DNA of 64,000 nt from a virus. Below the pieces are notes generated by a model that was not told where the DNA came from, made no database searches, and saw only the letters and a program-made list of their open reading frames with translations. Location of the stretch: positions 96,001-160,000 of the IMG/VR virus record IMGVR_UViG_3300023202_000336; one strand, written 5' to 3'. Below are positions 11,706-63,685 of this stretch, piece by piece; the first letter of the stretch is position 1; every line of letters starts with the position of its first letter. The position numbers were made by a program, and so were the translations under genes.

Positions 11706-11777
11706 CTCGTTTATGCTCGCTCAGGAGCTTTGTATCTGAGACTCGGGCGAAATCCGTCGAGGCCCCGTATCTGAGAC
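11706..11777 (+). CRISPR. Degenerate mini-array upstream of the cas12 gene: full variant repeat, 16-nt spacer, 3' half repeat
   Basis: atgctcgctcaggagctttgtatctgagac (11713-11742; 26/30 to array core), tcgggcgaaatccgtc, gaggccccgtatctgagac (11759-11777). Confidence 0.75.
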
Positions 11778-11824
11778 GCATCTGATATCGGAGCCTCGTC
11801 CCACCAACCGCTAAGGAGAACGAG

Positions 11825-13549
11825 ATGCAAAGAGGACGCGATCCAGCGAATATTTACAGCTTCGCTGCATACGTATACCGCGAGGATTACGAGCGGACCG
11901 GCGATATACTGTTCAATGCGAACCGGTTCGGAAACGCGCTTGTCGCGATCGAACTCCACCGTCGCGAAGAGTGCGAGAAAATACTTCGACAGTGCTCGAA
12001 GGATTACACGGACGCGCGCGCCAAGGAAGACGCGCTCGTCGACCACCTTCAAGCGATCGGCAAGGAGCTGGGTCGATATCGCCAAAAGAAGCGTGAAAAG
12101 AAGACGCCGAAGGAGCTCCGTGAAAAGTACACGGAGGTCGAAGGGCAACTCGAGAAGCATCGAAACAGCGTGGTGCTTCCGATCCGCCGGGAGCTCTACA
12201 GGAGCCCCAAAGTCAAGAAGCTCCTGAAGAAGCTACATGAGAAGGTAACCGCGGATAAAAAAGAAGCGCGGGCCAACAGGAACTGTTACTGGGGGACGGG
12301 TGGTCTCGTGGAGAAGGCCCACGAGAATGACGGAGAAGGGCCGCCTCCGTCATTCAAGCGATTCGACGGAACCGGTCGAATCGGTGTGCAGCTCCAACAG
12401 CAGTCAGGAGCTCCTCCGTGGACCCCGGAGCGGCTCACGAGAGAGAACACTCTCCTGATGCTCGATGTGGACCAGATGCCCGATGATTTCGTCGGCGCCG
12501 ATCTGAACACAAGGTACAAGAAAAGTCAGAAGAAACGCTGTCCGGTCCGTATGAGGATCGGTTCGGAGAAAGCCAAGCCGGTGTGGCTCGACTTCATGGT
12601 CAAGTTCCATCGACCGCTTCCAGAAGGCTGCAAGATCAAAGCAGCCTGGATCCTTTTCAAAAAGGTCGGGACGCATACGAAAACGTATTTTCAAACGCAA
12701 GTGGCGCGTCCCGAGGGGTTCATGAGAGACGACGTCGCCGATGGCGGCCATGTCGCGGTCGATCTTGGCTGGAGAAAGTTCGAGGACGACCGGGTCCGCG
12801 TCGCCTACTGGCTCGGAGATGATGGAGAACAGGGTGAGATCGCTCTCGATCCGGAGCTCCTGAGCCGAGACCGGAAGAACCGGTCACTCCAGTCGATCTA
12901 CGATCGACAGTTCGACTCCATGAAGGAGCTCCTCCATGGCTGGATCACCGAGCACAAGAGTTCGGTTCCGGAGTGGCTGAAGGAGGAGACGAAGACCCTG
13001 CCGATCTGGAGATCGAGGTCCCGCTTGGCAAAGGTCATCATCAAGTGGAGGAAACACCAGTTCGACGGCGACGTCGAACTGTATAAAACCGCCGAAAAGT
13101 GGCGGAAGAAGGACAAGCACCTCTTCGACTGGCACAAGTTCCAGGCGAGGATCATCAGGGAAAAGCGGAAGGCGCTTTTCCGAGAGGAAGCGGCAAAGCT
13201 CGCGAGGCGTTATCGCTGCGTCATATTCGAAGATATGAAGATCAGCGATATGGCCAAGGACTCACCGGTGAGCAGCGATGACATGGATCCAATCAAGGAT
13301 ATCATGAAACTCGCGTCGCCAGGGGAGCTTCGAATGGAGTTCGAGAGTCGATTCCGAGACTCCACCAGACAGAAGACGAAGAACACGACGAGAGAATGTT
13401 CGGAGTGCGGTTTCGTTGACGGAGAGTTCGACTTCGTGAATCTGTACCACGAATGCCCGAACTGTCAGGCGGAGAAGGATCAAGATCTCAACGCCTGCGA
13501 GAACCTCCTCGCACGAGAGTTGGGGCCACCAGACGCTTCGGCCGCTTGA
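11825..13549 (+). CDS. cas12: Compact type V CRISPR effector, Cas12m/V-U1-like, 574 aa, RuvC triad D-E-D
   Basis: RuvC-I VAVDLGWR (D313), RuvC-II VIFEDMK (E469), Zn finger CSEC...CPNC, RuvC-III DQDLNA (D554); FKRFDGTGRIGVQLQ and KDKHLFDW motifs recall the V-U1 family; adjacent CRISPR array. Confidence 0.85.
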   Translation: MQRGRDPANIYSFAAYVYREDYERTGDILFNANRFGNALVAIELHRREECEKILRQCSKDYTDARAKEDALVDHLQAIGKELGRYRQKKREKKTPKELREKYTEVEGQLEKHRNSVVLPIRRELYRSPKVKKLLKKLHEKVTADKKEARANRNCYWGTGGLVEKAHENDGEGPPPSFKRFDGTGRIGVQLQQQSGAPPWTPERLTRENTLLMLDVDQMPDDFVGADLNTRYKKSQKKRCPVRMRIGSEKAKPVWLDFMVKFHRPLPEGCKIKAAWILFKKVGTHTKTYFQTQVARPEGFMRDDVADGGHVAVDLGWRKFEDDRVRVAYWLGDDGEQGEIALDPELLSRDRKNRSLQSIYDRQFDSMKELLHGWITEHKSSVPEWLKEETKTLPIWRSRSRLAKVIIKWRKHQFDGDVELYKTAEKWRKKDKHLFDWHKFQARIIREKRKALFREEAAKLARRYRCVIFEDMKISDMAKDSPVSSDDMDPIKDIMKLASPGELRMEFESRFRDSTRQKTKNTTRECSECGFVDGEFDFVNLYHECPNCQAEKDQDLNACENLLARELGPPDASAA

Positions 13550-13556
13550 GAATGTT

Positions 13557-13599
13557 TTCGAGCGGCTACGTCGTCGATAAGATGACGTAGTCGCTCGAA
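13557..13599 (+). terminator. 19-bp hairpin directly after cas12 (terminator or accessory RNA element)
   Basis: ttcgagcggctacgtcgtc-gataa-gatgacgtagtcgctcgaa with two G-U wobbles, followed by gtctttta. Confidence 0.65.
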
Positions 13600-13650
13600 G
13601 TCTTTTATGCGATATTGTTTATATATAAAAATTTTGACAGTACTGTTAGA
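13600..13650 (+). promoter_or_regulatory. AT-rich CRISPR leader / putative array promoter
   Basis: tattgtttatatataaaattttgacagtactgt directly before the first repeat. Confidence 0.5.
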
Positions 13651-14229
13651 TATGCCCGCTCAGAGGCTTCGTATCTGAGACGAGGCGCGTGATCTCGAAC
13701 TCCTGGAGTATCCGCGTCGCTTATGCCCGCTCAGAGGCTTCGTATCTGAGACTGGGGCCTGCCAAACCACGCCCGCTTATGCCCGCTCAGAGGCTTCGTA
13801 TCTGAGACAGCGCTAGGTGAAGGCTGGCGGGGATGCCACGACCGTTTATGCCCGCTCAGAGGCTTCGTATCTGAGACGGATCGTTTTGGTGGTATCCCGC
13901 TTATGCCCGCTCAGAGGCTTCGTATCTGAGACGCCAATCCATCCAGGTACCCGCTGATGCCCGCTCAGAGGCTTCGTATCTGAGACTAGGCGCGTGATCT
14001 CGAACTCCTGGAGTATCCGCGCCGCTTATGCCCGCTCAGAGGCTTCGTATCTGAGACCCGCCTCGAGCACCCGTTTCGGGGGCGTTGATATCCCGCTTAT
14101 GCCCGCTCAGAGGCTTCGTATCTGAGACGACCACGCCTGCCGTCTCCGCGAACTCGGCTTCGCCCGCTGATGCCCGCTCAGAGGCTTCGTATCTGAGACG
14201 CCAATCCATCAAAGCCTCGTACCTGAGAC
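13651..14229 (+). CRISPR. CRISPR array: 9 repeats plus a degenerate terminal half repeat; 37-nt consensus CCCGCTTATGCCCGCTCAGAGGCTTCGTATCTGAGAC
   Basis: Invariant 30-nt core ends at 13681, 13752, 13808, 13877, 13932, 13986, 14057, 14128, 14199; stem CTCAGA/TCTGAG; spacers 34, 19, 32, 18, 17, 34, 34, 34 and ~14 nt. Confidence 0.97.
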
Positions 14230-14248
14230 ACCAACCAAGGAGAAAACC

Positions 14249-14809
14249 ATGCGTTTAGTCTGTGTTCTACTTTTCGTGTTCGGCCTCTGTGCCGAAGAAA
14301 CCTCCAAACTCCCCAGCACCGCCCAGCGTCTCGTCGATCGCCACGATCACGCGCTGGCCGAACTGCGTGAGCGATACCTCGCCGACGTCGCCGACTTGCG
14401 CGAAGACGTCACCCACGACCTCGAGCGGGAACTCAAGAAGACGACCCGTCGCGGCGACCTGGAAGGGGCCCTCGCGATCAAGGAGAAGATCACCGCGCTC
14501 AAGGAGCAAGAGGAGGCGATCGCTGAAGCGCCGACCGATTTCCTCGGACGTAAGAGGCAACCTGAATTCGTCGGAAACACCTACCGATACAGCTCATGGT
14601 GGGTTCGCTTTGATAAGGACGGGTCGGTGAAGACAAACTGGACTTCCCGCGACCTGAGAGACGGTGAATGGAGGATGGAAGGCGAAGAGATCGTCCTCGA
14701 ATTCAACGGGGAAGAGCACGTGAACCGCGCCTTCATCAACGAGGATGGAGATCTGGATTTTAACGGGGCGCAGCTGTTCCGCCTCGAGGAGAAGGACGAG
14801 GACGAATGA
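14249..14809 (+). CDS. Secreted/exported coiled-coil protein, paralog 1
   Basis: Signal-peptide-like N-terminus; LERELKKTTRRGDLEGALAIKEKI; AAGGAG RBS. Confidence 0.75.
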   Translation: MRLVCVLLFVFGLCAEETSKLPSTAQRLVDRHDHALAELRERYLADVADLREDVTHDLERELKKTTRRGDLEGALAIKEKITALKEQEEAIAEAPTDFLGRKRQPEFVGNTYRYSSWWVRFDKDGSVKTNWTSRDLRDGEWRMEGEEIVLEFNGEEHVNRAFINEDGDLDFNGAQLFRLEEKDEDE

Positions 14810-14847
14810 TCCTGATCCTGGATCAGTCGCCAGGAAAGGCGGCGAAG
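14806..14847. repeat. 42-bp exact duplicate of the 5' end of the 15455 gene (truncated remnant)
   Basis: atgatcctgatcctggatcagtcgccaggaaaggcggcgaag is identical at 14806-14847 and 15455-15496. Confidence 0.95.
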
Positions 14848-14882
14848 GCATACGCAGACAACGACCTCGTGGAGGAAGAACC

Positions 14883-15458
14883 GTGCGAATTCTGATGGCT
14901 ACGCTATTCTTGTTGCCGACCCTCTCCCTGTCCTCCGAGGAGGAGCAGGACCCGATGCCCGCGTCTGCCAAACGGACCGTGGCCCAGCACGATCGCGAGG
15001 TGCAGCGCCTCAAAGAACGCTACCTGTCCGACCTCGCCGAAATCCGCGAAGACACCCTTCGCGACCTCGAGCGTGACATGGAAAAGACGACCCGTCGCGG
15101 CGACCTCGAAGGGGCCCTTGCGATCAAGGAGAAGATCACTGCGCTCGAGGAGCAAGAAGAAGAGATCGCTGAGGCACCGACGGATTTCCTCGGGAACGCG
15201 AAGAAGCCGTTTTTTGCTGGTAGAACTTTTAACCATGTGCGCGGTGGTGGTTACCATATCGCATTTTCGGAGGATGGAACGTTGACGACGACGAACTGGG
15301 GCCACAGGTACAACGTCGGCGAATGGACCTTTGAGGACGGAACTATCCACATGGTTTTCGAGAACGGCGGTAACCCACATGAAGCAGAGGTAGATCCAGA
15401 AAACCAGAGGCTCACCTTCATGAACGGTGACGTTTACGTGATCTCGGAAGACAAATGA
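14883..15458 (+). CDS. Secreted/exported coiled-coil protein, paralog 2
   Basis: GTG start after GGAGG; signal-peptide-like N-terminus; shares TTRRGDLEGALAIKEKITAL...EAPTDFLG with paralog 1; different C-terminal domain. Confidence 0.75.
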   Translation: MRILMATLFLLPTLSLSSEEEQDPMPASAKRTVAQHDREVQRLKERYLSDLAEIREDTLRDLERDMEKTTRRGDLEGALAIKEKITALEEQEEEIAEAPTDFLGNAKKPFFAGRTFNHVRGGGYHIAFSEDGTLTTTNWGHRYNVGEWTFEDGTIHMVFENGGNPHEAEVDPENQRLTFMNGDVYVISEDK

Positions 15459-16012: not shown

Positions 16013-16024
16013 TTACGCGGAGGA

Positions 16025-16627
16025 ATGATGACGAAAACGCGTAGAAAAATGGTTGAGGTTTTAAATACATCGCTTCTCGATTTGGAAGATCTTGCGCTCA
16101 AAAGATTAGAAGAACGGAAGTTACCGGGTGATCCCAGTATTCCAGACGGTCTCCGTAGAGCTATAGAGGCGTTATCGAGAGCTGATCTGAAACCTGTTAC
16201 TAAGGAGTCGATTTGCGATGCTATGGCAGAATTGGCGCAGTTTCCTATATCAGATCCCGGCTATATAGCCTTCCGTAATAGTAAGTTAGATATAGGGGCA
16301 AGTGTACTCGTTGGTACACCGATTTACGTGAAAGCGAAGCGTAATCCGAATAATCATAATTATGCGACTGGCCACGTGTTTTTTGCAAGTTCAAATATCG
16401 ATAATACTTGGTCGTTAGGTATATTAAACAGCGGCACTATTGGTTTGGGAAATAGTCCTCCCGATTCTTTCGATGGAGTAGAGAGTTATTATCTCAGAAT
16501 AGCTACCGCAGACGAGGTACGTAGGACCATAACCGTTATGGTACAGATTATTAACCGCGAAGCTGTCGAAGTTAAAACCATGGGAATAATAGTAGGTTAC
16601 TTAGATACAGCTTTAAAAGAATTGTAA
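16025..16627 (+). CDS. Hypothetical protein (200 aa)
   Basis: GGAGG RBS; long ORF. Confidence 0.65.
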   Translation: MMTKTRRKMVEVLNTSLLDLEDLALKRLEERKLPGDPSIPDGLRRAIEALSRADLKPVTKESICDAMAELAQFPISDPGYIAFRNSKLDIGASVLVGTPIYVKAKRNPNNHNYATGHVFFASSNIDNTWSLGILNSGTIGLGNSPPDSFDGVESYYLRIATADEVRRTITVMVQIINREAVEVKTMGIIVGYLDTALKEL

Positions 16628-16647
16628 GCAGTATTCTTTTGTTGATT

Positions 16648-16677
16648 ATGCCCGCTTAGGAGTTGCGTATCTGAGAC
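16648..16677 (+). repeat. Solitary variant CRISPR repeat (copy B)
   Basis: atgcccgcttaggagttgcgtatctgagac, 25/30 to array core; stem kept via G-U pairs. Confidence 0.85.
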
Positions 16678-16691
16678 AAAGCAACCAACAG

Positions 16692-16718
16692 CGACCCACT
16701 GGGTCGTTTTTCTTTTTT
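16692..16718 (+). terminator. Intrinsic terminator 14 nt after solo repeat B
   Basis: cgaccc-act-gggtcg followed by tttttctttttt. Confidence 0.7.
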
Positions 16719-16733
16719 ACGGGAGGATTACCT

Positions 16734-17378: not shown

Positions 17379-17380
17379 TC

Positions 17381-18496: not shown

Positions 18497-18536
18497 AGAA
18501 AGAGGGGCCGGCTGTACGGCCGGCCCCTCTTTCTTC
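18495..18536. terminator. Bidirectional intrinsic terminator
   Basis: Perfect 18-bp inverted repeat gaagaaagaggggccggc / gccggcccctctttcttc with a 6-nt loop. Confidence 0.9.
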
Positions 18537-20328: not shown

Positions 20329-20340
20329 AAAGGAGCAAAC

Positions 20341-21090: not shown

Positions 21091-22809
21091 TCATATCGAC
21101 TCGACGAATACCTCAGCGAGCTTCGGCCATCTATTGAGCATGTGATAGATGGCCATCACCCCGAAATTAATGGCGTGTACCACGTCGTCGGTTCTTCTAC
21201 TCATCCGTTTAACGAGTCTCTTCGGAGATCCGCGCGGATTATCGATGGACTCTTCGTAGATGTTAAGGAAGTCACGAAGATGGTCATCGAGGTACTCATC
21301 GTTCTTCGGCAGGAGCACCTGTCCTGACTTGATAAGTTCACAGAGTAGGAGGACCGAGCGTGGTTTGTCGAGTGTAAAGCTCGAACGAGCGCCGATTAGT
21401 TTCGCCGGCTTGTTGTAAAAGACGAGCGGTTTAGTAGTAGCGGTAACGCTATAAGTAAAAGGAATTACTCTTTCAGCCGGCCACCCAGCGGCGTTGAGCA
21501 TCTGCTCCTGAACGTTTCCTTGTCCGCCGTAATCGATAGCTACATATTCGGAATGACTCATACGTGCGACGTTTGCGACGAGTTCCGCTTCGTGTGCATG
21601 ATCTGTCTCATACGGGATCTTATGAAGCCATTTCACTTCTATCACACCCGACGTGAGCACGCCCATCAAGGCGACTGCGGTATTAGATACGAAGTCTTCC
21701 GTATCGGTGGTTTTCTCTTTACCACGTCCGCCCCAGTCAACTCCCACCAGCTGCATGATGTACTGACCGTGAGGCATGTTCTCAGGGTGACACGGTTCGA
21801 CCTTACATGCTTCGCGAATCTGTTCGGCGGTAATAACTTTCGCACCGACGTCGTACGACTCTCCGAGAATCTCGTTATGAAAGACATATGCGGGCTTGTT
21901 CTTCTGAACTTCGAGTATTTCCTGCCACGAATTCGGAGATTCGTAGTGCATAGGAAGGGTCGGTTGTGAGACGTGATATCCTGCGAATTTAGCCCGGCGC
22001 TCGGGAAAATCGTGAACGAAAAATCCGAGCTTACTATTCAGCGGCTTACCGCACTTAGAGCATACGAGCGTCTTGGACCCTAACATCTGAAGCAAGTCAC
22101 CATCGACCGCCGATCGGTTTACACGTTTGCATCCGATTTCCTGACACGGTATATGCCATATCCCTTGAGAAGAGTCCTCCCAGTACAGCTGTATCGGATT
22201 ATCAAATGTTTTCGGCGTACCCGTCATTCGCATGATTTTAAACGGAGACGCACCCATACAGGCTTCGATGATAGGTATGTCCTCGATAGCGAAATCCTGG
22301 GTTTCATCGAGATCTACTTCGTCTGCAGGAACTCCTCGAATGCGGTTCGGATCCCCGTGTGAGTACATGTAGTAAAGATTCGATTCGTTACCAATGCTTC
22401 TCTGTAGTACAGTATCGATGCTTTTATCTCCGATTATGAACCGCTTCGCAGGAGACGTCGAGAGGAACGGTTTCACGTAGTTCTGACTGAATTTACGTAC
22501 CTGCTCGAAGAGAGGCATGACTGTGAGAATGTTGTAGAACGGTTGCGCAGATGCTCTCAGTATCTGAGACGCCGCCATATTTGTACTTTTCGACGTCTGG
22601 CGCCCGGTACGGAAAATCATACGTCTGGGCATATTTTTCAGGCGAAACATCGGTTCGAAGAGAAAATGAGACCACTCGAGAGAGTACGGTTTTCCTCTTA
22701 AACTAAATAACAGCGGGAGCATCTTTGAAAGTGGGCGATCATCGCAGTGGTCGTATTTTTCGAGATACGACTCGACCTGATCCGCGACCTGTAAGGGACT
22801 CCCCGTCAT
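21091..22809 (-). CDS. terL: Terminase large subunit (GpA-like)
   Basis: Walker A RTGRQTSKST, Walker B ADEVDLDETQD, motif III MTGTPKT, nuclease VGVDWGG...DDVVHA; start set at MTGSP (track ORF extends to 22932, overlapping fic). Confidence 0.85.
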   Translation of the reverse strand: MTGSPLQVADQVESYLEKYDHCDDRPLSKMLPLLFSLRGKPYSLEWSHFLFEPMFRLKNMPRRMIFRTGRQTSKSTNMAASQILRASAQPFYNILTVMPLFEQVRKFSQNYVKPFLSTSPAKRFIIGDKSIDTVLQRSIGNESNLYYMYSHGDPNRIRGVPADEVDLDETQDFAIEDIPIIEACMGASPFKIMRMTGTPKTFDNPIQLYWEDSSQGIWHIPCQEIGCKRVNRSAVDGDLLQMLGSKTLVCSKCGKPLNSKLGFFVHDFPERRAKFAGYHVSQPTLPMHYESPNSWQEILEVQKNKPAYVFHNEILGESYDVGAKVITAEQIREACKVEPCHPENMPHGQYIMQLVGVDWGGRGKEKTTDTEDFVSNTAVALMGVLTSGVIEVKWLHKIPYETDHAHEAELVANVARMSHSEYVAIDYGGQGNVQEQMLNAAGWPAERVIPFTYSVTATTKPLVFYNKPAKLIGARSSFTLDKPRSVLLLCELIKSGQVLLPKNDEYLDDHLRDFLNIYEESIDNPRGSPKRLVKRMSRRTDDVVHAINFGVMAIYHMLNRWPKLAEVFVESI

Positions 22810-22858
22810 TATGCCGCAACTTTTATTGCACAATTGCGAAAATGCAAGGAGCTTTTCG

Positions 22859-23404
22859 ATGACCAAGCCATTACCCCTTGATGTAACGAAACTTAGGGAT
22901 TTCGTGATAGAATCAAATACGGTCGAAGGCATCGTCAGAGACGAGAAAACACTTAAGGAGGAGGTAGAAGCTCACGAGCGACTGCTTCGGTGCAAAAAGG
23001 TCGAGGTTCGAGACGTCGTAAGACTCGTGAACACAGTGCAGCCGAACGCTCAGTTCAGGGATCATCAAGATATCCCGGGAGTCTGCGTGATAGCGAGGGT
23101 GCAGCGTCGGCATCATACCGAGACAGTCGTTATGTCCGAACCTCCAGAGAGTGGACCGCTCATCAGGGCCCGTCTACAAGACGTGCTCGATAAAGTCGAG
23201 AGGATGGAGAACGTTTATACGAATCATCTTCTTTATGAAGAGCTTCACCCTTTTACCGACGGGAACGGTCGTTCAGGACGGGCGGTATGGCTATGGCAGA
23301 TGTTGCGTACTGATATACCGTGGGGTTATCGATTCGAGCTACCGTTCCTGCAGAAGTGGTACTATGACTCGTTCTCTATGCTCGCTCAGGAGCCTCGTAT
23401 CTGA
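22859..23404 (+). CDS. fic: Fic-domain protein (AMPylase-type motif)
   Basis: Canonical HPFTDGNGRSGR; AAGGA RBS before ATG 22859. Confidence 0.9.
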   Translation: MTKPLPLDVTKLRDFVIESNTVEGIVRDEKTLKEEVEAHERLLRCKKVEVRDVVRLVNTVQPNAQFRDHQDIPGVCVIARVQRRHHTETVVMSEPPESGPLIRARLQDVLDKVERMENVYTNHLLYEELHPFTDGNGRSGRAVWLWQMLRTDIPWGYRFELPFLQKWYYDSFSMLAQEPRI

Positions 23405-23407
23405 GAC
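23334..23407 (+). repeat. 73-bp direct repeat copy 1 (fic 3' end plus solitary CRISPR repeat C at 23378-23407)
   Basis: 69/73 identical to 23916-23988; repeat C atgctcgctcaggagcctcgtatctgagac is 26/30 to array core and contains the fic stop codon. Confidence 0.9.
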
Positions 23408-23470
23408 GAGATGGATCATCGAGGTAGGCATATATGAGGCAGATAGACACCCGAGTATAGGAGTATATAT

Positions 23471-23534
23471 GAGAAAGTAATCGCGAGCTACTAATGCACG
23501 AGAAGTAATAGCGAGCTACTAACGTACGAGAAAG
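23471..23534. repeat. Tandem 28-29-bp repeat (2.2 copies)
   Basis: gagaaagtaatcgcgagctactaatgcac / gagaagtaatagcgagctactaacgtac / gagaaag. Confidence 0.7.
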
Positions 23535-23548
23535 AAGAGGATACTAGA

Positions 23549-23860
23549 GTGAAGTATACGAGAGTGAAACATGCGAGAAACAAGAGTGCCGCGACCTCCG
23601 GTGAGAAATTCATTTGGAGTGTATTCGCGTGGTCAGCGTTAGGCGCTATCGTTCTAATAGCCTTTGATTACATATGGCCCTACGCAGTCGCAGCCGCGTT
23701 CTGGTGGTCAGTTTTATGGAGCCTTTGCTGGGTTCTGAATACTCTATTCGACAAAGTTGAGTGGCTGGATGACTGGCTTGTAGGAGGGCCCGGACTGAGA
23801 GAAGTAAAAAGGGAGGTCGCTAAATACCATAAAGAACAAGTATTAAAAAAAGAAAGTTGA
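23549..23860 (+). CDS. Small membrane protein (103 aa, two hydrophobic segments)
   Basis: GAGG RBS, GTG start; Trp-rich hydrophobic stretch. Confidence 0.65.
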   Translation: MKYTRVKHARNKSAATSGEKFIWSVFAWSALGAIVLIAFDYIWPYAVAAAFWWSVLWSLCWVLNTLFDKVEWLDDWLVGGPGLREVKREVAKYHKEQVLKKES

Positions 23861-23879
23861 TAGCGCCGAGTGATTGTTC

Positions 23880-23907
23880 GGGCGGGACAAGCCCCCGCCC
23901 TCTTTTT
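23880..23907 (+). terminator. Intrinsic terminator
   Basis: gggcggg...cccgccc followed by tcttttt. Confidence 0.7.
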
Positions 23908-23915
23908 AAATCGAG

Positions 23916-23989
23916 TCGAGCTACCGTTCCTGCAGAAGTGGTACTATGACCCGTTCACTATGCTCGCTCAGGAGCTCCGTATCTGAGAT
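23916..23989 (+). repeat. 73-bp direct repeat copy 2, containing solitary CRISPR repeat D (23960-23989)
   Basis: atgctcgctcaggagctccgtatctgagat, 25/30 to array core. Confidence 0.9.
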
Positions 23990-24075
23990 AAAAAAAACTA
24001 GTGAATCAGAAAATAGATGATATAGGGTATAATAAAACGAAGGTAGGCGTATTTCTGTAATAAAGGGGGGACGTC

Positions 24076-24765
24076 ATGATAGATGCGATGGTAGCATATT
24101 ACGGTAGGCAATTTCGAGTACGTAATAAGAACGTGTATAGATACCTTTCAGGAATGCAAAAGGATTATAACGAGAGAGCTCGAACGAGGTGTAGAGGGTT
24201 CGAATACATGCGTTTACGGAATAGAGGGTCAAATTACTGTGGGAACCCATTTTGCCCGACGTGTTGGCACCGTAAACAAGAACATCTTATTAGCTTCATC
24301 ATGGATGCTCGATCAGATTTATTATTTTTGAGAGTAACTGACGAGGTCCACTGGGAAGATACACTTAACAAAAGATATCTCGATAAACTAAAAAGTAGAA
24401 AATATAGACTCATAGCTCAATGTATTTCTTTTGATAACCTTATAGGCGTGATCGATGATATCGGGTATAAAATAGCAGGCATATATAGCGCGAGTAGAGA
24501 GGTTCACGATGAGGATACACCAGGAGTGTCTTATGTACACGAGCAGGCGAATGATCCTTTGTCGGAGGTGATAGGAGCGGTAGAAAAGCTCGAATACGAA
24601 GGAAGCGATAAAGAGAGTCTTATACATGATTGGCAAGATACTATGAAGCACCCGTATAAGTTTCGTAGGCACTCGAGGTTTAACGAGTATATTCGTAGGT
24701 TTGAAACGTTTCGTATTGAACGAAGTTGGGCGAAACGCGGAATTGTACCCCGAGGAGGACGTTGA
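24076..24765 (+). CDS. Hypothetical protein with a CxxxxCPxC zinc motif (229 aa)
   Basis: YCGNPFCPTCWHRK; low-GC segment. Confidence 0.6.
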   Translation: MIDAMVAYYGRQFRVRNKNVYRYLSGMQKDYNERARTRCRGFEYMRLRNRGSNYCGNPFCPTCWHRKQEHLISFIMDARSDLLFLRVTDEVHWEDTLNKRYLDKLKSRKYRLIAQCISFDNLIGVIDDIGYKIAGIYSASREVHDEDTPGVSYVHEQANDPLSEVIGAVEKLEYEGSDKESLIHDWQDTMKHPYKFRRHSRFNEYIRRFETFRIERSWAKRGIVPRGGR

Positions 24766-28769: not shown

Positions 28770-28795
28770 CCAACTTCAAAAGGGAAGAACAAACT

Positions 28796-29047
28796 ATGAT
28801 CGACATTTCCATCGGAGCGCCTCCCCGCTCTCCCATGCGCACCGTCACCGTCCCCGACGATGCTTCCGTCGCGGATGCCATCGAAGCGGCTGGGCTCAAC
28901 GGCCCGGAGTATCGGAACTTCGAGATCCGGGCGGGCGGCAACCACATCGATCACCCCGAGCGCGAACGCGCCACTCCGGGGATGACGGTGATCCTGGCCC
29001 CTCAGGTGAAGGGGAACGAGTTCGAAATTCGCATCAAGACACGATAG
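28796..29047 (+). CDS. Ubiquitin-like (beta-grasp) protein with a VKG|NEFEIRIKTR pro-tail (module 1)
   Basis: 83 aa; TVTVPDDASVADAI...EIRAGG...GMTVILAPQVKG pattern; follows the E1 gene. Confidence 0.75.
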   Translation: MIDISIGAPPRSPMRTVTVPDDASVADAIEAAGLNGPEYRNFEIRAGGNHIDHPERERATPGMTVILAPQVKGNEFEIRIKTR

Positions 29048-29060
29048 ATGGCCAGAAATA

Positions 29061-29084
29061 CCGGGGAGGAATCGTTCTCCCCGG
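29061..29084 (+). promoter_or_regulatory. GC-rich hairpin after the Ubl gene (stabilising or partial terminator)
   Basis: ccggggag-gaatcgtt-ctccccgg; no U-tract. Confidence 0.5.
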
Positions 29085-29110
29085 CGTCATCTATGAGGAA
29101 GTGAGATAGC

Positions 29111-31474
29111 ATGATTACGAGAGTAAAAATTAAGAACTTCGGCGTTCATAAGTATATGGATATCGAGTTAGAAAAAGGTATAAACGGGATCATTGGTACG
29201 AATGGTTCCGGTAAATCAACGATACTCGAAGCTATTAGATTCGGATTTACTGGTCAGGTATCTATGTCGGGGAATAAAGACGATAATGTTTCATGGGGCG
29301 AAGATCGCGGTAGTGTAGAGATTTGGTTCACGTACGGTGACACTGATTATCAGCTGAAACGTACTCTTGGAGCTGGTTCTTCTCAGCGTCTGATCACCCC
29401 GGAAGACACTTATCGTCGAAAGACTGAAATCGAGCAGTATTTGAGAGAGCTTCTCGGCGCGAGTGCTGACGCGCTTTTGAACAATATTTTTCCTCCACAA
29501 GGAGATATAGATAAGATACTTTTCGATACGCGTACCCAACGTTTGAAAGAGATGCAGCAAACCGTAGGGCTCCAAAGAGCTGCGGAAGCTGAAAAAGCCC
29601 TCGGTAACGAGATTAACAGTTATATATTAACGATAGGTCTTGACGCACAGATAGAGGCAATCGAAGAAGAATTTGAAAAAGTAGACGAAGAGCTGAAAGA
29701 TGCCACTCGACATAAAAGTTCAGTAGATGACGAGATAGATTGTCTCGAAACCTATAGAGATAAGCTCAACGAGTTCATGATTTCGCAAGAAAATAGGGTC
29801 ATATTGGATGATACCAAAAAGGAAATAGACGGCCTCGAACGAGAGCTCTACAAATCTAATCATGAGCGTCTTGAAATATCCAGTCATATAGAGGCAATGG
29901 CGTATCTTCGTGACTCGAAGAAACCGCTCGTAGAGGATGCTCAGGAGAAACTTCTCGACATCAGGTCGAGAGAGAAACAGATCAAAACGGTCGAATCTTT
30001 GAAAGAGAAACTCGTAAAGATAGATAAAGCGATAGTGGATCTCACAGAGTCGCGAGATGACCTTCTCGATATTATAGAGTCTAAGGAAGATCTCTTACGA
30101 AAGAAGCGTTCCAAGCTCGATCAATTAGTAGACATCGAGAAGGAAAAGATCCCATACCCGGAGACAGAAGAGGAAAAAGAATATAAAGAAGAATATCAGA
30201 ACATCGCAGCTGAGCTCGATGATCTGACGAAAAAGGAGCTGTTTTCGGAAGAGCTGGACGATCTTCAGAAGAAGTTAGAGGGTAGGAATCTCATGCTCGA
30301 GTCTATCGACGAGGGTAGCTGCTACGCATGCGGAGCTCCTGTAGACGACGTTAAGAGGGCCTTTGTTGAGAATGAAATAGAGGAGCTAGAAGGGTCGATT
30401 TCGGAGGTTTCAAAGGCTCTTCGCGCAGAACGCGATGAGAAGGTACGCGAGTTGACCGAGTATCTCTCTGGTCTCGAAAAGAAAATAGAGTATTACATTA
30501 AGACGGCCCGCGAGGTAATATCCTCGAGAAGAAAGAAAATCGAAAAAGAAGTAGAGGAGCTCGAGAATGACTTGAAGATGCTCAGGTCCGAGAAAGAAAC
30601 GCTCGGCGAGCTTCGTGCAAAGAAAACAGCAGTAGAAGAGCAGATATCCAATAACGAAGTAGTAGAGTCTCATGACGTGGATATCGACGAGCTTAAGAGC
30701 ACGGTCGATAAATACGATAAGGTTCTTACGAAATTGAGTGATCTCGAGAGCGAACTTAAGTTAAAGGAACAGAAAATAGAGAATATAGAATCCTCGTTAC
30801 AGCGAGCTAATGAAAGGAAAGAAAAGATAGAAAGTAATACCGTCAGTTTTAGTGATGAGGAAATAGCTGAGGCGAAGGAGAAAGTGGACGTTCTTGCTGA
30901 GAGACTAAATTTTCGTAAGAGCCTCATAGAGGCCCTCACTGGACTGGAAGTGAAATATAAGGAATACTCTTCTTCGCTTAAGAGCCTTCATGAGAAATAT
31001 GAGAGGGAAAAGAAAGATCAAGAATGGGTGAAATTCTGTAAAAAAGTAAGAGACGTGTTTCATGTAAGTGCACTTCCGTCCCTCGCCATGAGAGAATACG
31101 CGACGGTACTGAACAAGCGTGTCGACTACTATCTGTCTACGTGGGAGGCTCATTTTACTATGGAGCTCGACGAAGAGCTGTCATTTATAGCTAAATTCGA
31201 CGATAGAATACATCCGGCGAAGAGGTTGTCGGGTGGACAAAGGATAATTGCGAGTACAAGTTTTAGACTCGCGATGGGTGATACGTTCGCCAAACGCGTC
31301 GGATTGCTAGTTTTAGATGAGCCATCAGTCTATCTAGACAAAGATAACATCATACATCTACAGAGACTTTTACTGAAGTTGAAGGAGCTGGCCGGCGCGA
31401 CCGGTAAACAGATCCTCTTGGTTACACACGAAGAGACATTAAGTGGTTTCTTCGATAACATCATCAGACTGTAA
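29111..31474 (+). CDS. sbcC: Rad50/SbcC-like SMC ATPase
   Basis: Walker A GTNGSGKST, long coiled coil with CYAC zinc hook, LSGGQ signature, Walker B LLVLDEP, VTH. Confidence 0.92.
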   Translation: MITRVKIKNFGVHKYMDIELEKGINGIIGTNGSGKSTILEAIRFGFTGQVSMSGNKDDNVSWGEDRGSVEIWFTYGDTDYQLKRTLGAGSSQRLITPEDTYRRKTEIEQYLRELLGASADALLNNIFPPQGDIDKILFDTRTQRLKEMQQTVGLQRAAEAEKALGNEINSYILTIGLDAQIEAIEEEFEKVDEELKDATRHKSSVDDEIDCLETYRDKLNEFMISQENRVILDDTKKEIDGLERELYKSNHERLEISSHIEAMAYLRDSKKPLVEDAQEKLLDIRSREKQIKTVESLKEKLVKIDKAIVDLTESRDDLLDIIESKEDLLRKKRSKLDQLVDIEKEKIPYPETEEEKEYKEEYQNIAAELDDLTKKELFSEELDDLQKKLEGRNLMLESIDEGSCYACGAPVDDVKRAFVENEIEELEGSISEVSKALRAERDEKVRELTEYLSGLEKKIEYYIKTAREVISSRRKKIEKEVEELENDLKMLRSEKETLGELRAKKTAVEEQISNNEVVESHDVDIDELKSTVDKYDKVLTKLSDLESELKLKEQKIENIESSLQRANERKEKIESNTVSFSDEEIAEAKEKVDVLAERLNFRKSLIEALTGLEVKYKEYSSSLKSLHEKYEREKKDQEWVKFCKKVRDVFHVSALPSLAMREYATVLNKRVDYYLSTWEAHFTMELDEELSFIAKFDDRIHPAKRLSGGQRIIASTSFRLAMGDTFAKRVGLLVLDEPSVYLDKDNIIHLQRLLLKLKELAGATGKQILLVTHEETLSGFFDNIIRL

Positions 31475-47450: not shown

Positions 47451-47594
47451 ATGAAGATGCACCGGACACAGATAAGCCTCCCGCCCGTCCTCTTCGGTTG
47501 GCTCAAAGCCGAAGCTGAAAGAAAAGGAATCAGCATCGCTGAACTCATTCGCCGCGTCTTGGATCGTGAATATGAAGATCAGCAGAAGCAGTAA
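47451..47594 (+). CDS. Ribbon-helix-helix (CopG-like) protein, 47 aa, absent from the ORF track
   Basis: MKMHRTQISLPPVLFGWLKAEAERKGISIAELIRRVLDREYEDQQKQ; overlaps the tnpB start; TTGACA upstream. Confidence 0.75.
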   Translation: MKMHRTQISLPPVLFGWLKAEAERKGISIAELIRRVLDREYEDQQKQ

Positions 47595-48654
47595 GTGCTC
47601 CCTCAAGTTTACGACGGCATCAAAACTGTCGAAACTGGATGTCGTGCTCACCGAGTACGGTCAGGTGGTCAACCGCTTCATCGACCTGTTCTGGGTTGAG
47701 TGCCCAGCCAAGAGCAGGCTACTCAAACCTATCGTGGATTCGGTTGATAGCTGGTTCACTGCCCGTCTCCGTAAGGTTGCTGCTCGTGAAGCCATCGACA
47801 TGGTGAAGGCCGCTAAAGAGCGTTGGGGCGAGAAGGCCGTAAAGCCGACCCACCGTGGACAACGGATGTGCGTCAGTAGCACCATTGCTCGACTGGACGT
47901 TGCCAAGGATTCAACCTTCGACTGCTGGCTGCACCTATCGTCCATCGGCAATGGCATCATCCTCGACCTGCCGATTAAACGGCACAGGCACTTCAACGAT
48001 CTGGCTACTGCCGGTCGTAGGCAAGAGTCTTACATTATCACCAGGGATTCAGTGCAGTTCTGCTTTGAGATCGAAACTGGGCCGAAACAGGAACCGGATC
48101 GCTGTGTCGGTGTTGATACTGGAATCAACGCCTTAGCCAGTTTGTCCACTGGTGATCAGTTAGGCACTGAAATCAAGGTTGGTATCGAACGAATCAAACG
48201 CTGTAAGCACGGAAGCAAAGGTCAGAAGCGAGCCGTTCGTGCGTTGCGACAGCGGATGGATGAAGTCGCCAAAGAGGTGGTTGGAAAAGCCTCGTTGGTT
48301 GCTGTCGAGAACTTGAAGAACATCACGAAGAATACCAAACGCCGCTTGGGTAAAAATATGCGGCGCTCTATCGGTCGTTGGAATGTGCGATACTGGTTGA
48401 CGAGATTGCAGCAAGTCTGTGAACGAAACCGTGTTTCGTTCCGGTCTGTCTCGCCACGCTACACTTCGCAGCAGTGTTCCAAATGTGGCTTCACCGATAG
48501 GAGGAATCGAAACGGTGAGTTGTTCCGTTGCCTCAGTTGTGGCTATGAGGCAAACGCAGATGTGCAGGCATCACGGAACATCCTCACCCGATTCCTTACC
48601 GGACCCTACGGTGCCGGTTGCAAACCTCTCGTGTCCTGTAATGGGATACTTTGA
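47566..48654 (+). CDS. tnpB: IS200/IS605-family TnpB RNA-guided nuclease
   Basis: VGVDTG, AVENL, VSPRYTSQQCSKCG...FRCLSCG...ADVQASRNI; D-E-D triad present. Confidence 0.92.
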   Translation: MNMKISRSSKCSLKFTTASKLSKLDVVLTEYGQVVNRFIDLFWVECPAKSRLLKPIVDSVDSWFTARLRKVAAREAIDMVKAAKERWGEKAVKPTHRGQRMCVSSTIARLDVAKDSTFDCWLHLSSIGNGIILDLPIKRHRHFNDLATAGRRQESYIITRDSVQFCFEIETGPKQEPDRCVGVDTGINALASLSTGDQLGTEIKVGIERIKRCKHGSKGQKRAVRALRQRMDEVAKEVVGKASLVAVENLKNITKNTKRRLGKNMRRSIGRWNVRYWLTRLQQVCERNRVSFRSVSPRYTSQQCSKCGFTDRRNRNGELFRCLSCGYEANADVQASRNILTRFLTGPYGAGCKPLVSCNGIL

Positions 48655-58035: not shown

Positions 58036-58037
58036 TA

Positions 58038-58673: not shown

Positions 58674-58704
58674 CAAACCAGCGATTTACGAATAATGATC
58701 TCGA

Positions 58705-59052: not shown

Positions 59053-59059
59053 GAATATA

Positions 59060-59758: not shown

Positions 59759-59937
59759 TGAAAAAGTACGGTGTCAGTACGCCGTTCGATAAAGGGTTTC
59801 AGAGGGGGCTGTCCGGGCTGGACAGCTCCCCTGATCCTTCTATCGAGACACGGCAAGATTACATAGCATATATGGAAGGTGTCGCACAAGGGCATCTTGC
59901 TCGCAAGGAGCGACAAGAAAACAAGGATAAGAAATGA
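59755..59937 (+). CDS. Small hypothetical protein (60 aa)
   Basis: Coupled overlaps at both ends. Confidence 0.55.
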   Translation: MMKKYGVSTPFDKGFQRGLSGLDSSPDPSIETRQDYIAYMEGVAQGHLARKERQENKDKK

Positions 59938-60563: not shown

Positions 60564-60620
60564 ACGCGTTTACTCAGCCGCATCAGAACCGATACACGCA
60601 CATCTCAACGGAGGGCGTAC

Positions 60621-61106
60621 ATGTCACGCTTCTTTAGCTTTCTTGGTGACGTCTTTGACGGTATGTCTATGGTTCAAGGGTCGTTCAAGTATCTATTCGC
60701 TGCGCTCGTGTTTTATACTTTTGGATATCTGCCTGCGCTAATGGCATTCAAATACGATAGTTTCACGACACTTATGGTGATGTTCGGGTTCGTTACGTCA
60801 CTGACCTGCGTGGCATTCTTCTATCAGCACGTCCATCAAGAGCTTCGACACTATGGCTTCGGCGTGAGGTATCCGCATGATAACGGATATACGCAAAGGT
60901 TGGAGAAGAAGCTCGCGGAGCGGAGTAAGAAGCAACAAGCAGCAGCCGAAGCACTTGAAGAGGGGTACTATATGATTTACCGTGATTACAAAAGGACGCT
61001 TCTTAATGGGACTAGCGAAGATATAGCTCGCGCTCACAAGACCCTGAGTAGATGTTGTAAAGAGATTGACGAAAGCAGAAGCCTTAGTGGAATACCAACT
61101 CTCTAA
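60621..61106 (+). CDS. Membrane protein (two N-terminal TM segments, 161 aa)
   Basis: GGAGG RBS; hydrophobic stretches. Confidence 0.65.
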   Translation: MSRFFSFLGDVFDGMSMVQGSFKYLFAALVFYTFGYLPALMAFKYDSFTTLMVMFGFVTSLTCVAFFYQHVHQELRHYGFGVRYPHDNGYTQRLEKKLAERSKKQQAAAEALEEGYYMIYRDYKRTLLNGTSEDIARAHKTLSRCCKEIDESRSLSGIPTL

Positions 61107-61123
61107 CCGAAAGGAATGATACT

Positions 61124-61399
61124 ATGCCACAATTTACGGTACGTAGAGCGCGTCTTGAGATCGAAGAGTTCGATGTCGACGCTGCTGACGAAGTCCATGC
61201 GAAAGCTATCGTCGAGGACGGTCTCGATCAAGCTACTCTCACGCCAGATAGGACCGAGACGAAAGATGTACGTTTTGATGAATTCCAGACCAGTTCCGAT
61301 CCCGCTGCGAGTACGCTCACTGTGACCACCTCGCAGCAAAACTTCATCACGCCGAATGAGCTTTCGGATATACAAGCCCTCGGCGCAACCATCCAGTGA
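61124..61399 (+). CDS. Hypothetical protein (91 aa)
   Basis: AAGGA RBS. Confidence 0.6.
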   Translation: MPQFTVRRARLEIEEFDVDAADEVHAKAIVEDGLDQATLTPDRTETKDVRFDEFQTSSDPAASTLTVTTSQQNFITPNELSDIQALGATIQ

Positions 61400-61470
61400 A
61401 AGGAACCCATGGATAGACTTATAGACAAAATCATACCAATCACTAGCTTTCAGGGCCCGAGATAAGTCCG

Positions 61471-61770
61471 ATGGGTAGGGTCCTCAAGTATATCGTCTAT
61501 AATAAGGGGAATCTGGATTTTTTCGTCGTAGCTCCAGAGATCGCAAAACACGTCGACTTTGTGCCTCGAACCGTTGAAAACGAAGACCTGTTATCCGCTG
61601 GATTCTGTAAGGTCTATTACACCGGACAGTTGCGTCTGCACCCGGAAACGTTTGAAGCTGGCTATCAAGAAGTTCGCGTCAGATGCTACGGAAGATCCGT
61701 CTCGCTAGGTTTAGAGAGTCGACCTAAAGAAGACTCGAAGCTGCTGACGCGTTATATTACACTGTTCTAA
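61471..61770 (+). CDS. Hypothetical protein (99 aa)
   Basis: ORF in a co-oriented run. Confidence 0.55.
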   Translation: MGRVLKYIVYNKGNLDFFVVAPEIAKHVDFVPRTVENEDLLSAGFCKVYYTGQLRLHPETFEAGYQEVRVRCYGRSVSLGLESRPKEDSKLLTRYITLF

Positions 61771-61793
61771 ACTATAATACCGAAAGGAACAGG

Positions 61794-63170
61794 ATGCAGG
61801 ATATCCTTCAGTTCCTGAAGGAACAGATGAAAGACAATCAGTTTCTTCAGGGTGGCCTCGTTTTGGGCCTCGTCGGGAGCGCTATTGTATACTTGAGGCA
61901 TTTGCCCGTGCTCGTTTATCGGTGGATAAAGTTTTTACTAACGGTGACGGTAACCTTCGAGAGTAGAGATCCACTTTTTGATTTCTTTAAACAATGGACG
62001 AATGACCAAGAATTCATTTACAAGAAGCGTAACGTCATGGTATCGACGAATGAACACGTTGATCCACCGGTCATAAGGCAAGAGATGGGGAGATCGAGGT
62101 ATGTACTTCGGATGCATGGATTTTGGCTGACCGTATCAAGGTACCGCGACGAAGCAGTTGCCGACAAGAAGGCTGATCGAATGAGCTTTTCGCAGCTTAT
62201 GAATCCGGAGATGATCACGGTGACGTGTTTCGTCTGGAACAGAAAGAAGCTCGTCTCTATTCTCGACGAGGTAATCGATTCGTACGGTTCGAACGTGAAA
62301 TTCGGAGTACCGACGTATCAGTTCGGGTACTGGAGTTGGGTATCCAGCGGTGTCCAGAGCAAACGCGATGTCGATTCTCTGGTTCTTCGCGAGGGGCTCA
62401 AGGAAGAGATACTACGCGACGTTGAAGATTTTTACGCTTCGAAGGAATGGTACGATCGATTGCATATCCCTCATCAACGCGGGTATCTCCTCAAAGGACC
62501 CCCGGGGACAGGTAAGACCAGCCTTGTTGGGACTATGGCTGGCTTCTTCAACTTGAAGCTATGCCCGTTGGAACTCGGGAGCATCGATGACGACTCGACA
62601 CTGAGACGAGCATTCACCAATGTACCGGGTAGAGCGATTATCGTTATCGAAGATTTCGATTCGTTTTTTGAAGGCCGCAAACCGAAAAATCCAGATTCGA
62701 AGATAACCTTTAGCGGCCTTCTCAATGCCGTTAACGGCATCATACATAGCCCCGGGAGACTTCTTGTGCTGACAACTAACAGGGTTGAGAATATCGACCC
62801 AGCTCTGAGCCGTGTCGGACGTATCGACCGGATATTCGAACTTGGTTACGTCGATGAGTATCAAGCGGGAACGTTGCTTCGTAAATTCGACCCGAGAATT
62901 AACGAGGATATCGTAGACGACTTTGCGAAAAGGTGTGCTGAAAATAAGCTTACGCCGGCGGATCTTCTCGGTTACTTTCAAATGTGCAAGAATGATCCGG
63001 AGCGTGTCATCGATGTCGAAGCTATCGTTGAAGAGCGGAGAAAGCGCGACGCGCTTAGCGAAGAGATAGATAGGGAGGCGGAACTGCAGTTAAAGGAGCA
63101 GAGACGGAGAGAGGCCGAGACAAAGCCTGAAGTATCTCAGGCGGGCGTCCACCACGGGAGGCCGGTATAA
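61794..63170 (+). CDS. BCS1-like AAA+ ATPase with an N-terminal TM segment
   Basis: FYASKEWYDRLHIPHQRGYLLKGPPGTGKTS, IEDFD, ITFSGLLNAVNG, TTNRVENIDPALSRVGRID. Confidence 0.85.
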   Translation: MQDILQFLKEQMKDNQFLQGGLVLGLVGSAIVYLRHLPVLVYRWIKFLLTVTVTFESRDPLFDFFKQWTNDQEFIYKKRNVMVSTNEHVDPPVIRQEMGRSRYVLRMHGFWLTVSRYRDEAVADKKADRMSFSQLMNPEMITVTCFVWNRKKLVSILDEVIDSYGSNVKFGVPTYQFGYWSWVSSGVQSKRDVDSLVLREGLKEEILRDVEDFYASKEWYDRLHIPHQRGYLLKGPPGTGKTSLVGTMAGFFNLKLCPLELGSIDDDSTLRRAFTNVPGRAIIVIEDFDSFFEGRKPKNPDSKITFSGLLNAVNGIIHSPGRLLVLTTNRVENIDPALSRVGRIDRIFELGYVDEYQAGTLLRKFDPRINEDIVDDFAKRCAENKLTPADLLGYFQMCKNDPERVIDVEAIVEERRKRDALSEEIDREAELQLKEQRRREAETKPEVSQAGVHHGRPV

Positions 63171-63668
63171 ATGAGTGAGCTTATATCACTACGGTTGATA
63201 ATAACTGTACTCGCATTGAGCGCCGGGGCTAGTTATGGAGCCTTGACCAGGCATAGCTTCAAAAGTCTTTATGACAAGGTTTATATAGTTTTCGGTCGCG
63301 TTTTTTATTCGTTTTTTCCGTTCGCACTTTTGTTCACAATTGCTGGTGTATTAGTATTGATAAACGCAATACTATTCCTTCCTGAACCTTTCAAGCTGTG
63401 TTTTTGTATTTTCCTTGGTTTTCCAGCATACGCGGTTGGTAATATATCTGCAGCATGGCTTGCCCGAGTTAGTGTAATATCGGTCCAATGTCCGAATCCG
63501 ACATGCCGGTATATATGTACAAACTGGAGTGCGTTCAATCCACGGCCGGTAATGAAGTGTAAAAGGTGTCACAGTGAGTTCATGTTTCATATGCTCAAGG
63601 ACAATATGGTGTACGCCAAGACACTCCAAGACTGTGCTCGCCGGAGCCTCGTATCTGATGCTCGCTAG
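63171..63668 (+). CDS. Membrane protein with a C-terminal Zn-ribbon-like motif (165 aa)
   Basis: Three hydrophobic segments, then CPNPTC...CKRC. Confidence 0.6.
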   Translation: MSELISLRLIITVLALSAGASYGALTRHSFKSLYDKVYIVFGRVFYSFFPFALLFTIAGVLVLINAILFLPEPFKLCFCIFLGFPAYAVGNISAAWLARVSVISVQCPNPTCRYICTNWSAFNPRPVMKCKRCHSEFMFHMLKDNMVYAKTLQDCARRSLVSDAR

Positions 63669-63685
63669 AGCTTCGTATCTGAGAC
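63634..63685 (+). repeat. Two fused degenerate CRISPR-repeat copies (copy E) over the gene 3' end
   Basis: gtgctcgccggagcctcgtatctga (63634-63658) then atgctcgctagagcttcgtatctgagac (63658-63685). Confidence 0.75.

Follow-up and report, generated by a model that had tools for sequence, protein, structure and literature searches.

CRISPR repeats are known to make up arrays, to act singly as decoys against the systems of a host, and to serve, one unit at a time, in regulation near cas genes. According to the literature, Cas12m, the type V-M effector, is enriched on plasmids and also occurs in some prophages, and a 2026 preprint calls the MV-1 case the first phage Cas12m; the passages of that preprint consulted here make no mention of solitary repeats. 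Literature searches pairing Cas12m with solitary repeats returned nothing relevant, in agreement with an earlier note on the DNA studied here, whose author knew of no described genome-wide repeat network tied to a phage-encoded Cas12. Here, we analyze a 64,000-nt stretch of a viral genome (the window; bases 96001-160000 of IMG/VR record IMGVR_UViG_3300023202_000336). The whole phage genome, G000, is a complete record of 180,134 bp with 127-bp direct terminal repeats and genes mainly on the + strand; coordinates are those of the window unless G000 is given. Besides a Cas12m effector and a CRISPR array, this virus spreads about 20 intact handles of its own CRISPR RNA (crRNA) over its gene boundaries as solitary repeats (solos), and several distant Cas12m phages are alike in this respect.

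The closest described counterpart is the type V-M Cas12m2 of Mycolicibacterium mucogenicum (PMC10442227; PMC11013384), which resembles the G000 system in its homologous effector, its lack of Cas1, its location on a mobile element, and its single crRNA, whose 5' handle combines a 6-bp helix with a G·A pair and ends in C. The G000 cas12m gene (11825..13549, +) encodes a 574-aa type V-M protein with a RuvC D-E-D triad and a zinc-finger TNB domain (Pfam). By sequence comparison, this effector is a Cas12m homologue: a phmmer search of the PDB retrieved Cas12m 23vw_A (E 6e-47) and Cas12m2 8hhl (E 1.3e-24, residues 43-563). No Cas1 was found in the G000 genome. The array (13645..14199, +) lies about 100 nt 3' of cas12m and consists of nine identical 37-nt repeats with spacers of 18-35 nt. 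Unlike Cas12m2, whose triad is H-D-D, the G000 effector shares D-E-D with family clades 3/4 and PDB 23vw, the non-canonical triad of the Cas12m2 clade not being present, and its carrier is a 180-kb genome of lytic phage type. Furthermore, G000 differs from characterized V-M loci in having about 20 repeats outside the array, at gene boundaries.

The earlier note had picked out four full copies of the 30-nt repeat core outside the array, at 11713, 16648, 23378 and 23960, all on the + strand. These copies were confirmed, each within a 37-nt unit, and a stem-anchored pattern matched the window 13 times (nine array and four solo copies) versus 0.18 matches expected from shuffles. The note's description of the four also holds: none breaks a stem pair, since A13G and C10T convert to G-U and the loop, the 5' portion and the final base take up the remaining substitutions; all share an AGGAG-for-AGAGG swap, which is real and common to 14 of the 20 solos of G000; and all lie between genes or over a stop codon, with 23371-23407 spanning the stop of a Fic-like open reading frame (ORF). 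Scanning the whole genome with a covariance model, a check that the note had proposed, showed the family to be larger than first noted. At E<0.03, the 180-kb genome contains nine array repeats and 20 solos, all on the + strand. Besides the 14 solos of the AGGAG form, two have the array form and one (G000 164358) is an exact array repeat.

The virus thus carries solitary copies of its CRISPR repeat in intergenic regions: the midpoints of 10/20 solos fall outside ORFs, versus 7.6% non-coding sequence expected (p 6e-7, with an ORF list that over-calls). Three solos are in the first 5 kb of G000, 12 in the stretch at 159-180 kb, and four at 107-120 kb near the cas locus, so that 15/20 lie within ~25 kb around the genome ends. 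There are also ~10 half copies consisting of the 3' arm and tail only, and an 11-mer of the 3' half occurs 37 times on the + strand and once on the - strand. At G000 161618, 164395, 168836, 172930 and 179589, a second 11-nt copy of the 3' arm and tail, with one or two changes, directly abuts a solo; slippage or an alternative pairing partner are possible explanations for these five.

The solos are full-length repeat units with the limits of the array repeats. Among 16 solos, pairwise identity holds at ~0.9 through the last repeat base and drops to 0.25 one base further on, and the 5' shoulder fades as it does in the array. The solved Cas12m2 handle has six Watson-Crick pairs in addition to a non-canonical G·A pair; its loop is short, and its final C is read base-specifically (PMC10442227). 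The G000 helix joins positions -23..-18 with -8..-3 (-22..-17 with -8..-3 in Cas12m2), flanked by G and A and ending in C as its last base, and nearly all solos retain the G·A pair, the 6-bp stem and the final C.

Substitution patterns indicate selection on the hairpin fold. In an alignment of 38 hairpins drawn from two phages, 79.5% of the cells are paired versus 67.5% when shuffled, and the covariation score of 0.356 (0.201 shuffled) was reached in 0/500 shuffles; two stem pairs switch from C-G to U-A and from U-A to G-C in 9-12 sequences. Within G000, 6/10 changed stem pairs still pair versus 19% expected at random, substitutions per nt among solos rise from 0.05 in the stem through 0.09 in the loop to 0.23 in the 5' flank, and genome-wide one pair is broken in each of four weaker copies. 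Given this pair-keeping bias and the covariation, substitutions are not random with respect to the stem. The link that the earlier note drew to a phage-encoded Cas12 also stands, in that the effector is a Cas12m, the handle features are kept, and the repeat family travels with cas12m in other phages, as described below.

We tentatively read the solos, with somewhat less than even confidence, as Cas12m-binding and Cas12m-processing leaders on phage mRNAs, including that of cas12m itself; the binding, the cleavage and the direction of any effect, be it repression or stabilization, are predictions from sequence. Cas12m2 processes its own pre-crRNA upstream of the scaffold (PMC10442227). In G000, Cas12m would bind each solo handle as it does the repeat in pre-crRNA and cut just upstream, which would split long transcripts at gene boundaries. 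The downstream mRNA would then keep a Cas12m-bound 5' hairpin, with its first 17-20 nt in the guide channel, and in about a quarter of cases these nucleotides would include the ribosome-binding site (RBS). Some 20 genes, cas12m among them, would follow the level of Cas12m and form a post-transcriptional regulon with feedback, while the array would serve in competition against other phages. Such leaders would account for the intact handle, the sense strand, the boundary and start-proximal sites, the solo before cas12m, and the lack of targets in trans. Among the four options that the earlier note had put forward, processing or gating of phage mRNAs is accordingly the best fit, albeit one judged by sequence. 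If Cas12m does read these handles, the phage would offer a natural Cas effector organizing viral gene expression at the RNA level, and Cas12m would have a second job besides DNA silencing. Synthetic biology has built the same transcript-splitting design with Csy4 and Cas12a.

Feedback on cas expression has precedents, and natural single-guide autoregulation of Cas9 is a kindred case. In G000, solo 1 (11706..11742, +; AGGAG type, E 6e-10) ends 82 nt 5' of the cas12m start codon, and a half repeat with 3' arm and tail only (11767..11777, +) follows 24 nt after it; together they look like a mini-array unit in the cas12m leader. The crRNA-like RNAs (crlRNAs) and CreR/CreA systems (bioRxiv 10.1101/2024.12.27.630466; 10.1101/2023.03.03.530964) similarly place a repeat-like unit by a cas gene, and the mini-array-like form of solo 1 with its half repeat and the plausibility of feedback on cas expression bring G000 close to them. 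However, crlRNAs act in trans on a promoter, through partial complementarity beside a protospacer-adjacent motif (PAM), and no such target was found in G000: the only TTN-flanked matches of >=13/17 were to other repeat copies, and the cas12m upstream region gave none. A further difference is that most solos lie far from the cas locus.

The same hairpin family occurs in other Cas12m phages, which were found by DNA-motif scans and the covariance model; a protein-pattern scan of viral contigs with the G000 Cas12m found no relative, and a metagenome scan for the AGGAG-type solo found no match. The family is dispersed in G002, G007 and Ga0315298_1000517, all of which carry cas12m, and in G001; its loop is conserved, and its stems differ between phages in a covarying manner. 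G001 (an 87-kb fragment, 44% complete) and G002 (83 kb) are 92-97% identical over ~51 kb and hold 10-14 dispersed copies; in G001 the family additionally forms an array-like cluster, and G002 has an H-D-D Cas12m-like gene with a solo 83 nt 5' of its start. In G007 (94 kb, 67% GC), cas12m is flanked by arrays and accompanied by three solos. Ga0315298_1000517 encodes a Cas12m homologue with one solo 35 nt before its ATG and another directly past its stop, as well as mini-arrays and ~17 dispersed copies in 28 kb. A solo therefore lies 5' of the cas12m start by 82, 83 and 35 nt in three lineages, and an array occupies this place in a fourth. These phages are distant: each has only 1-11 proteins in common with G000, at 25-45% identity, and Cas12m is 24-38% identical among phages.

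Other Cas12m carriers have no solos outside their arrays. This is the case for G009 (180 kb, complete; cas12m and one array), for Rctr197k (GenBank KX853510; a 30%-identical Cas12m annotated as a transposase, and an array whose repeats, at least 18 of them, have the same stem), and for an 18-kb stretch around another Cas12m homologue. Because distant phages show dispersal while others have none, the dispersal of solos is recurrent but optional among Cas12m phages. A tie between solo presence and RuvC type was considered and rejected, since solos are present in some D-E-D phages, missing from others, and present in the H-D-D phage G002.

In G001 and G002, some copies sit in a module of ~90-110 nt in which a gene begins on one strand, the opposite strand carries a sigma-70-like promoter (TTGAC, 17 nt, TACAGT), and a solo comes next (G001 3100-3184, 14823-14927 and 82734-82822; G002 43442-43526, 61215-61303 and 62490-62579). 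Every copy of the module diverges at the base following the solo. A promoter directly 5' of the solo is clear in subfamily (a) of G001 and G002; it is found at few G000 copies, and promoter-like sites are not enriched there.

The G001 fragment raises the question of whether Cas12m is involved at all. Its 87 kb hold many copies of the hairpin and no cas12m or TNB-domain gene, and positions at gene boundaries would suit a generic RNA element. The hairpins could in principle be Cas-independent sites (mRNA-stabilizing elements, or sites for an RNase or another protein) that the CRISPR repeat merely resembles or derives from. We regard this as very improbable. The missing part of G001 could hold cas12m, as its close relative G002 has one, and the limits and conserved bases of the hairpins equal those of array repeats beside cas12m in five lineages. 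Furthermore, the hairpin is short, lacks a U tract and has a weak predicted fold (-6.8 to -8.6 kcal/mol), and Rfam gave no family match within the window.

Several observations weigh against mRNA leaders read by Cas12m. Since G009, Rctr197k and the 18-kb stretch have no solos outside arrays, Cas12m works without them. Enrichment near start codons is modest, with 16/58 of all solos lying <=40 nt before a start codon with an RBS versus 13% of random positions. Subfamily (a) of G001 and G002 has its own promoter and is divergent from the neighboring gene, which places it outside an mRNA leader. The half copies, some of which abut a full solo, are left without explanation, and 14 G000 solos have a G-to-A change at the first loop base, a G in all other aligned copies; this shared change could alter binding or cutting. 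Finally, the mechanism by which Cas12m2 processes its pre-crRNA is itself not settled (PMC10442227).

Array spacers connect these phages in another way. Spacer 1 (13682-13716) and its near-copy spacer 6 (13987-14021) match the unrelated phage G009 (G009:170192) at 16/17 of their first 17 nt, beside TTG. The protospacer lies within an ORFan gene (169982-170773, - strand), and the match covers only the first 16 nt of a 35-nt spacer; by our estimate, ~0.003 such hits would arise by chance over all guides and sequences searched. The TTG that precedes this single protospacer fits the 5'-TTN PAM of Cas12m2. The first 16 nt of an array spacer from a Ga0068707 phage similarly match a Ga0315298 contig. 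Because array spacers match rival phages, the arrays look, from these alignments, like weapons between phages.

Neither the G000 array nor that of G009 has the appearance of active growth. The strain L143, the only close strain found, is 99.2% identical to G000 over 2.9 kb, with no informative solo site, and has the same array spacers, so that the G000 array is static. Two of its spacers are duplicated, spacer 6 resembles spacer 1 as noted above, and the stretch after the last repeat starts like spacer 5. In the G009 array (158393-159723; L032:1-1330, - strand), the stem differs, with compensating changes, between nearly all of the 30-nt repeats, and spacer length is 17-20 nt; it looks like an old fixed guide set rather than one under extension.

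G000 solo guides, in contrast to an array spacer, had no target in their own genome or in ~1 Mb of DNA from related phages. As self-targets in G000, both array spacers and solo guides found only chance 11-mers and other repeat copies. Self-targeting by guides of some tandem units, which match the 3' half or 5' part of other repeats beside an internal TT, was set aside as a by-product of repetition.

Alternatively, the solos may relate to described viral RNAs that interfere with CRISPR systems. Solitary repeat units (SRUs) acting as RNA anti-CRISPRs (Racr; PMC10651486) and Cracr RNAs (bioRxiv 10.1101/2024.10.29.618823) are, like the G000 solos, single repeat mimics in phage intergenic regions, some of which share transcripts with neighboring genes. 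The function of viral SRUs as RNA anti-CRISPRs is established, and one of them is cotranscribed with an acr gene on a bicistronic RNA (PMC10651486). Host Cas proteins are reportedly hijacked by viral crRNA-like RNAs (bioRxiv 10.1101/2024.10.29.618823). G000 solos could likewise be decoys in abundant transcripts, soaking up the Cas12m of rivals, plasmids or the host. The handle of rival phages is nearly the same, with the same loop motif, and the genes behind G000 solos are mainly ORFans, the solo cluster region being one of small ORFan accessory genes. Solo 2 (16641..16677, +; E 5e-9), just past the stop of ORF 16025-16627, is followed by ~15 nt and then a terminator-like hairpin with a T run (~16693-16718), and it could therefore yield a small crRNA-like RNA; this single unit with a terminator is shaped like a small decoy RNA and parallels the described elements. 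Promoter and terminator scans of the solo-rich 20 kb gave counts near the shuffle expectation.

However, the described elements mimic a host repeat, occur at one or few per element, and come without cas genes, SRUs being typically free of cas-gene association (PMC10651486), whereas G000 has about 20 copies of its own repeat beside its own effector and array. Because the solos carry the stem of this phage and not those of known rivals, decoys would titrate its own Cas12m first, and in three lineages a solo precedes the phage's own cas12m. For the same reasons, the RNA anti-CRISPR option of the earlier note fits poorly, and we consider decoys quite unlikely.

Comparison of alleles offers a different view of the solos. 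G001 and G002 differ in solo content, with 6/8 solos at block ends or inside indels, and three comparisons place the breakpoint exactly at a solo's last base. One concerns a G001 insert of 84 nt, comprising a solo and 47 nt from the end of a gene, which lies between TTA and sequence that is contiguous in G002; because it falls exactly there, the guide of the G001 solo matches G002 at 18/18 beside a TTN motif. Ga0315298_1000517 and L116, another Ga0068707 contig, are 92% identical and differ by a 65-nt indel that starts from the solo's last base, the guide derived from the L116 solo matching the other allele at 18/20. A third indel, of ~880 nt, starts at a solo end. Motif and target are contiguous in the empty allele in one TTA case (G001/G002) and one TGG case (L116), which is a small sample. 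RNA-templated insertion was considered for the 84-nt insert and rejected, as the guide of the source solo does not match the new site.

These breakpoints may indicate that each solo is a guide unit whose guide comes from adjacent phage DNA and is directed at insert-less relatives, the host or another foreign target, with Cas12m silencing or cutting the uninterrupted allele. The outcome would be exclusion or copying of the solo and its neighboring cassette, by the logic of TnpB/omega-RNA homing. This reading is founded on the first two indel cases, in which the solo flank is a guide matching the other allele. All three indels, the targeting of rival phages by arrays (G000 spacer 1 on G009, the Ga0068707 spacer on Ga0315298) and the D-E-D triad of the G000 RuvC domain are consistent with this. 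On the other side, the cases number only two or three, each of them in a relative rather than in G000, and no close G000 relative with an empty site was found. The adjacent motifs differ (TTA, TGG and CTG), which leaves PAM compliance unproven. Moreover, any insertion creates a guide for its empty allele, a single TTN is expected by chance about 1 time in 16, and a guide doubling as an RBS region would be heavily constrained. The failure of G000 solo guides to match the ~1 Mb of related phage DNA also argues against such units, and on balance we think them unlikely; the earlier suggestion of single-repeat guides thus gains two suggestive cases in relatives and no target for any G000 solo. Were solo guides active against solo-less relatives, they would illustrate the spread of guide-encoding repeats, with arrays maybe descending from transposon-end RNAs.

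In the TnpB/omega-RNA homing of IS200/IS605 elements, the scaffold ends at the element edge and the guide is taken from flanking DNA. The solos are similar in that their guide would start at the scaffold edge, and the empty allele of one relative shows motif and target side by side. They differ in having no transposase, a ragged left end, one to three cases and inconsistent motifs; a search for the Y1 transposase (PF01797) found none in G000 and gave matches in control genomes. It is rather improbable, in our view, that the solos are selfish TnpB-like guide units placed between a PAM and its flank, through which Cas12m excludes relatives or drives copying into them. If they were, the genome would amount to a giant array with genes as its 'spacers', an intermediate between omega-RNA and the CRISPR array. 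G000 has TnpB-like sequences of its own: at G000 161552-162109, a 140-aa C-terminal TnpB-like fragment (TNB, E 3e-21) comes after a pair of abutting solos and a half copy, and a full TnpB of 362 aa is encoded at 47566-48654. The possibility that the fragment at 161.6 kb is a Cas12m duplicate was ruled out.

The same breakpoints could instead reflect recombination. T4-type phages have PeSL elements (promoter early stem-loops) and cluster A mycobacteriophages have stoperators; these are DNA sites or promoters without a CRISPR link, tied respectively to cassette shuffling and to genome-wide control by one phage protein. The solos are similarly short, oriented, multi-copy intergenic repeats at gene boundaries in plastic regions, and they might be recombination substrates, or mobile promoter/stem-loop modules, that shuffle cassettes and have only a historical link to Cas12m. 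Solo 3 (23371..23407, +) lies over the stop codon of the Fic-like ORF (22811-23404), and solo 4 (23953..23989, +), together with its preceding 44 nt, repeats 23334-23407. The resulting 73-nt direct repeats, in which a solo is joined to the final 44 nt of the Fic-like gene, enclose a 103-aa gene and a terminator (23334-23989), and the boxed gene looks like a cassette inserted by recombination at the repeat. Solos at G000 2714 and 2890 have ~41 nt of upstream flank in common, subfamily (a) of G001 and G002 carries a promoter, and the differing solo content of these two phages, with most solos at block ends or in indels, would also be expected from shuffling. Derived changes are common to solos, which have thus spread from one another.

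Recombination, however, does not depend on a fold, whereas the stems covary and their bias toward keeping pairs is significant. The bases read by Cas12m2 are kept, the family is found with cas12m in distant phages, and G000 has neither a Y1 transposase nor Cas1. Mosaic junctions fall at gene boundaries anyway, and the conserved unit of the solos, unlike that of PeSL or stoperators, is an RNA fold identical to the crRNA handle. We therefore doubt strongly that recombination is what the solos are for. The recombination sites proposed in the earlier note are nonetheless reflected in the indel breakpoints, as a consequence of the solos rather than as an explanation of their conserved fold.

Further features of the window and of the related phages touch on these loci. 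The earlier note had listed a more degenerate repeat at 63634..63685 (+), which is repeat-derived and consists of two tandem copies spaced at a 24-nt period and truncated so that most of the 5' arm is missing; it lies over the stop of ORF 63171-63668 and gives only a marginal model match (E 0.028). The 103-aa gene boxed by solos 3 and 4 holds a 28-nt tandem repeat (23475-23532), and searches with the Fic-like protein found no record elsewhere. The array ends in a degenerate terminal half repeat (14211..14229, +), 19 nt 5' of the ATG of the next gene (14249), with an RBS between. This gene and its neighbor, the two genes 3' of the array (14249-15458), are paralogous and are joined differently in strain L143 (L143:2524-2931); as the junction differs in a 99%-identical strain, this region rearranges.

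A second array-like cluster, with another repeat type, is present in G001 (23225-24310; L012:3225-4310, -) and G002 (28795-30100). Its repeat has a 6-bp stem and a 9-nt loop, the same shape as that of the first family. Between the two phages the spacers of this cluster are conserved, and a matching effector gene was not found in their examined DNA. In the window, a large terminase subunit with a gpA-like ATPase domain (21091-22932, - strand) lies between the cas region and solos 3 and 4. The terminase region shows synteny with G001 and with the Ga0315298 contig, and hairpin clusters adjoin it there.

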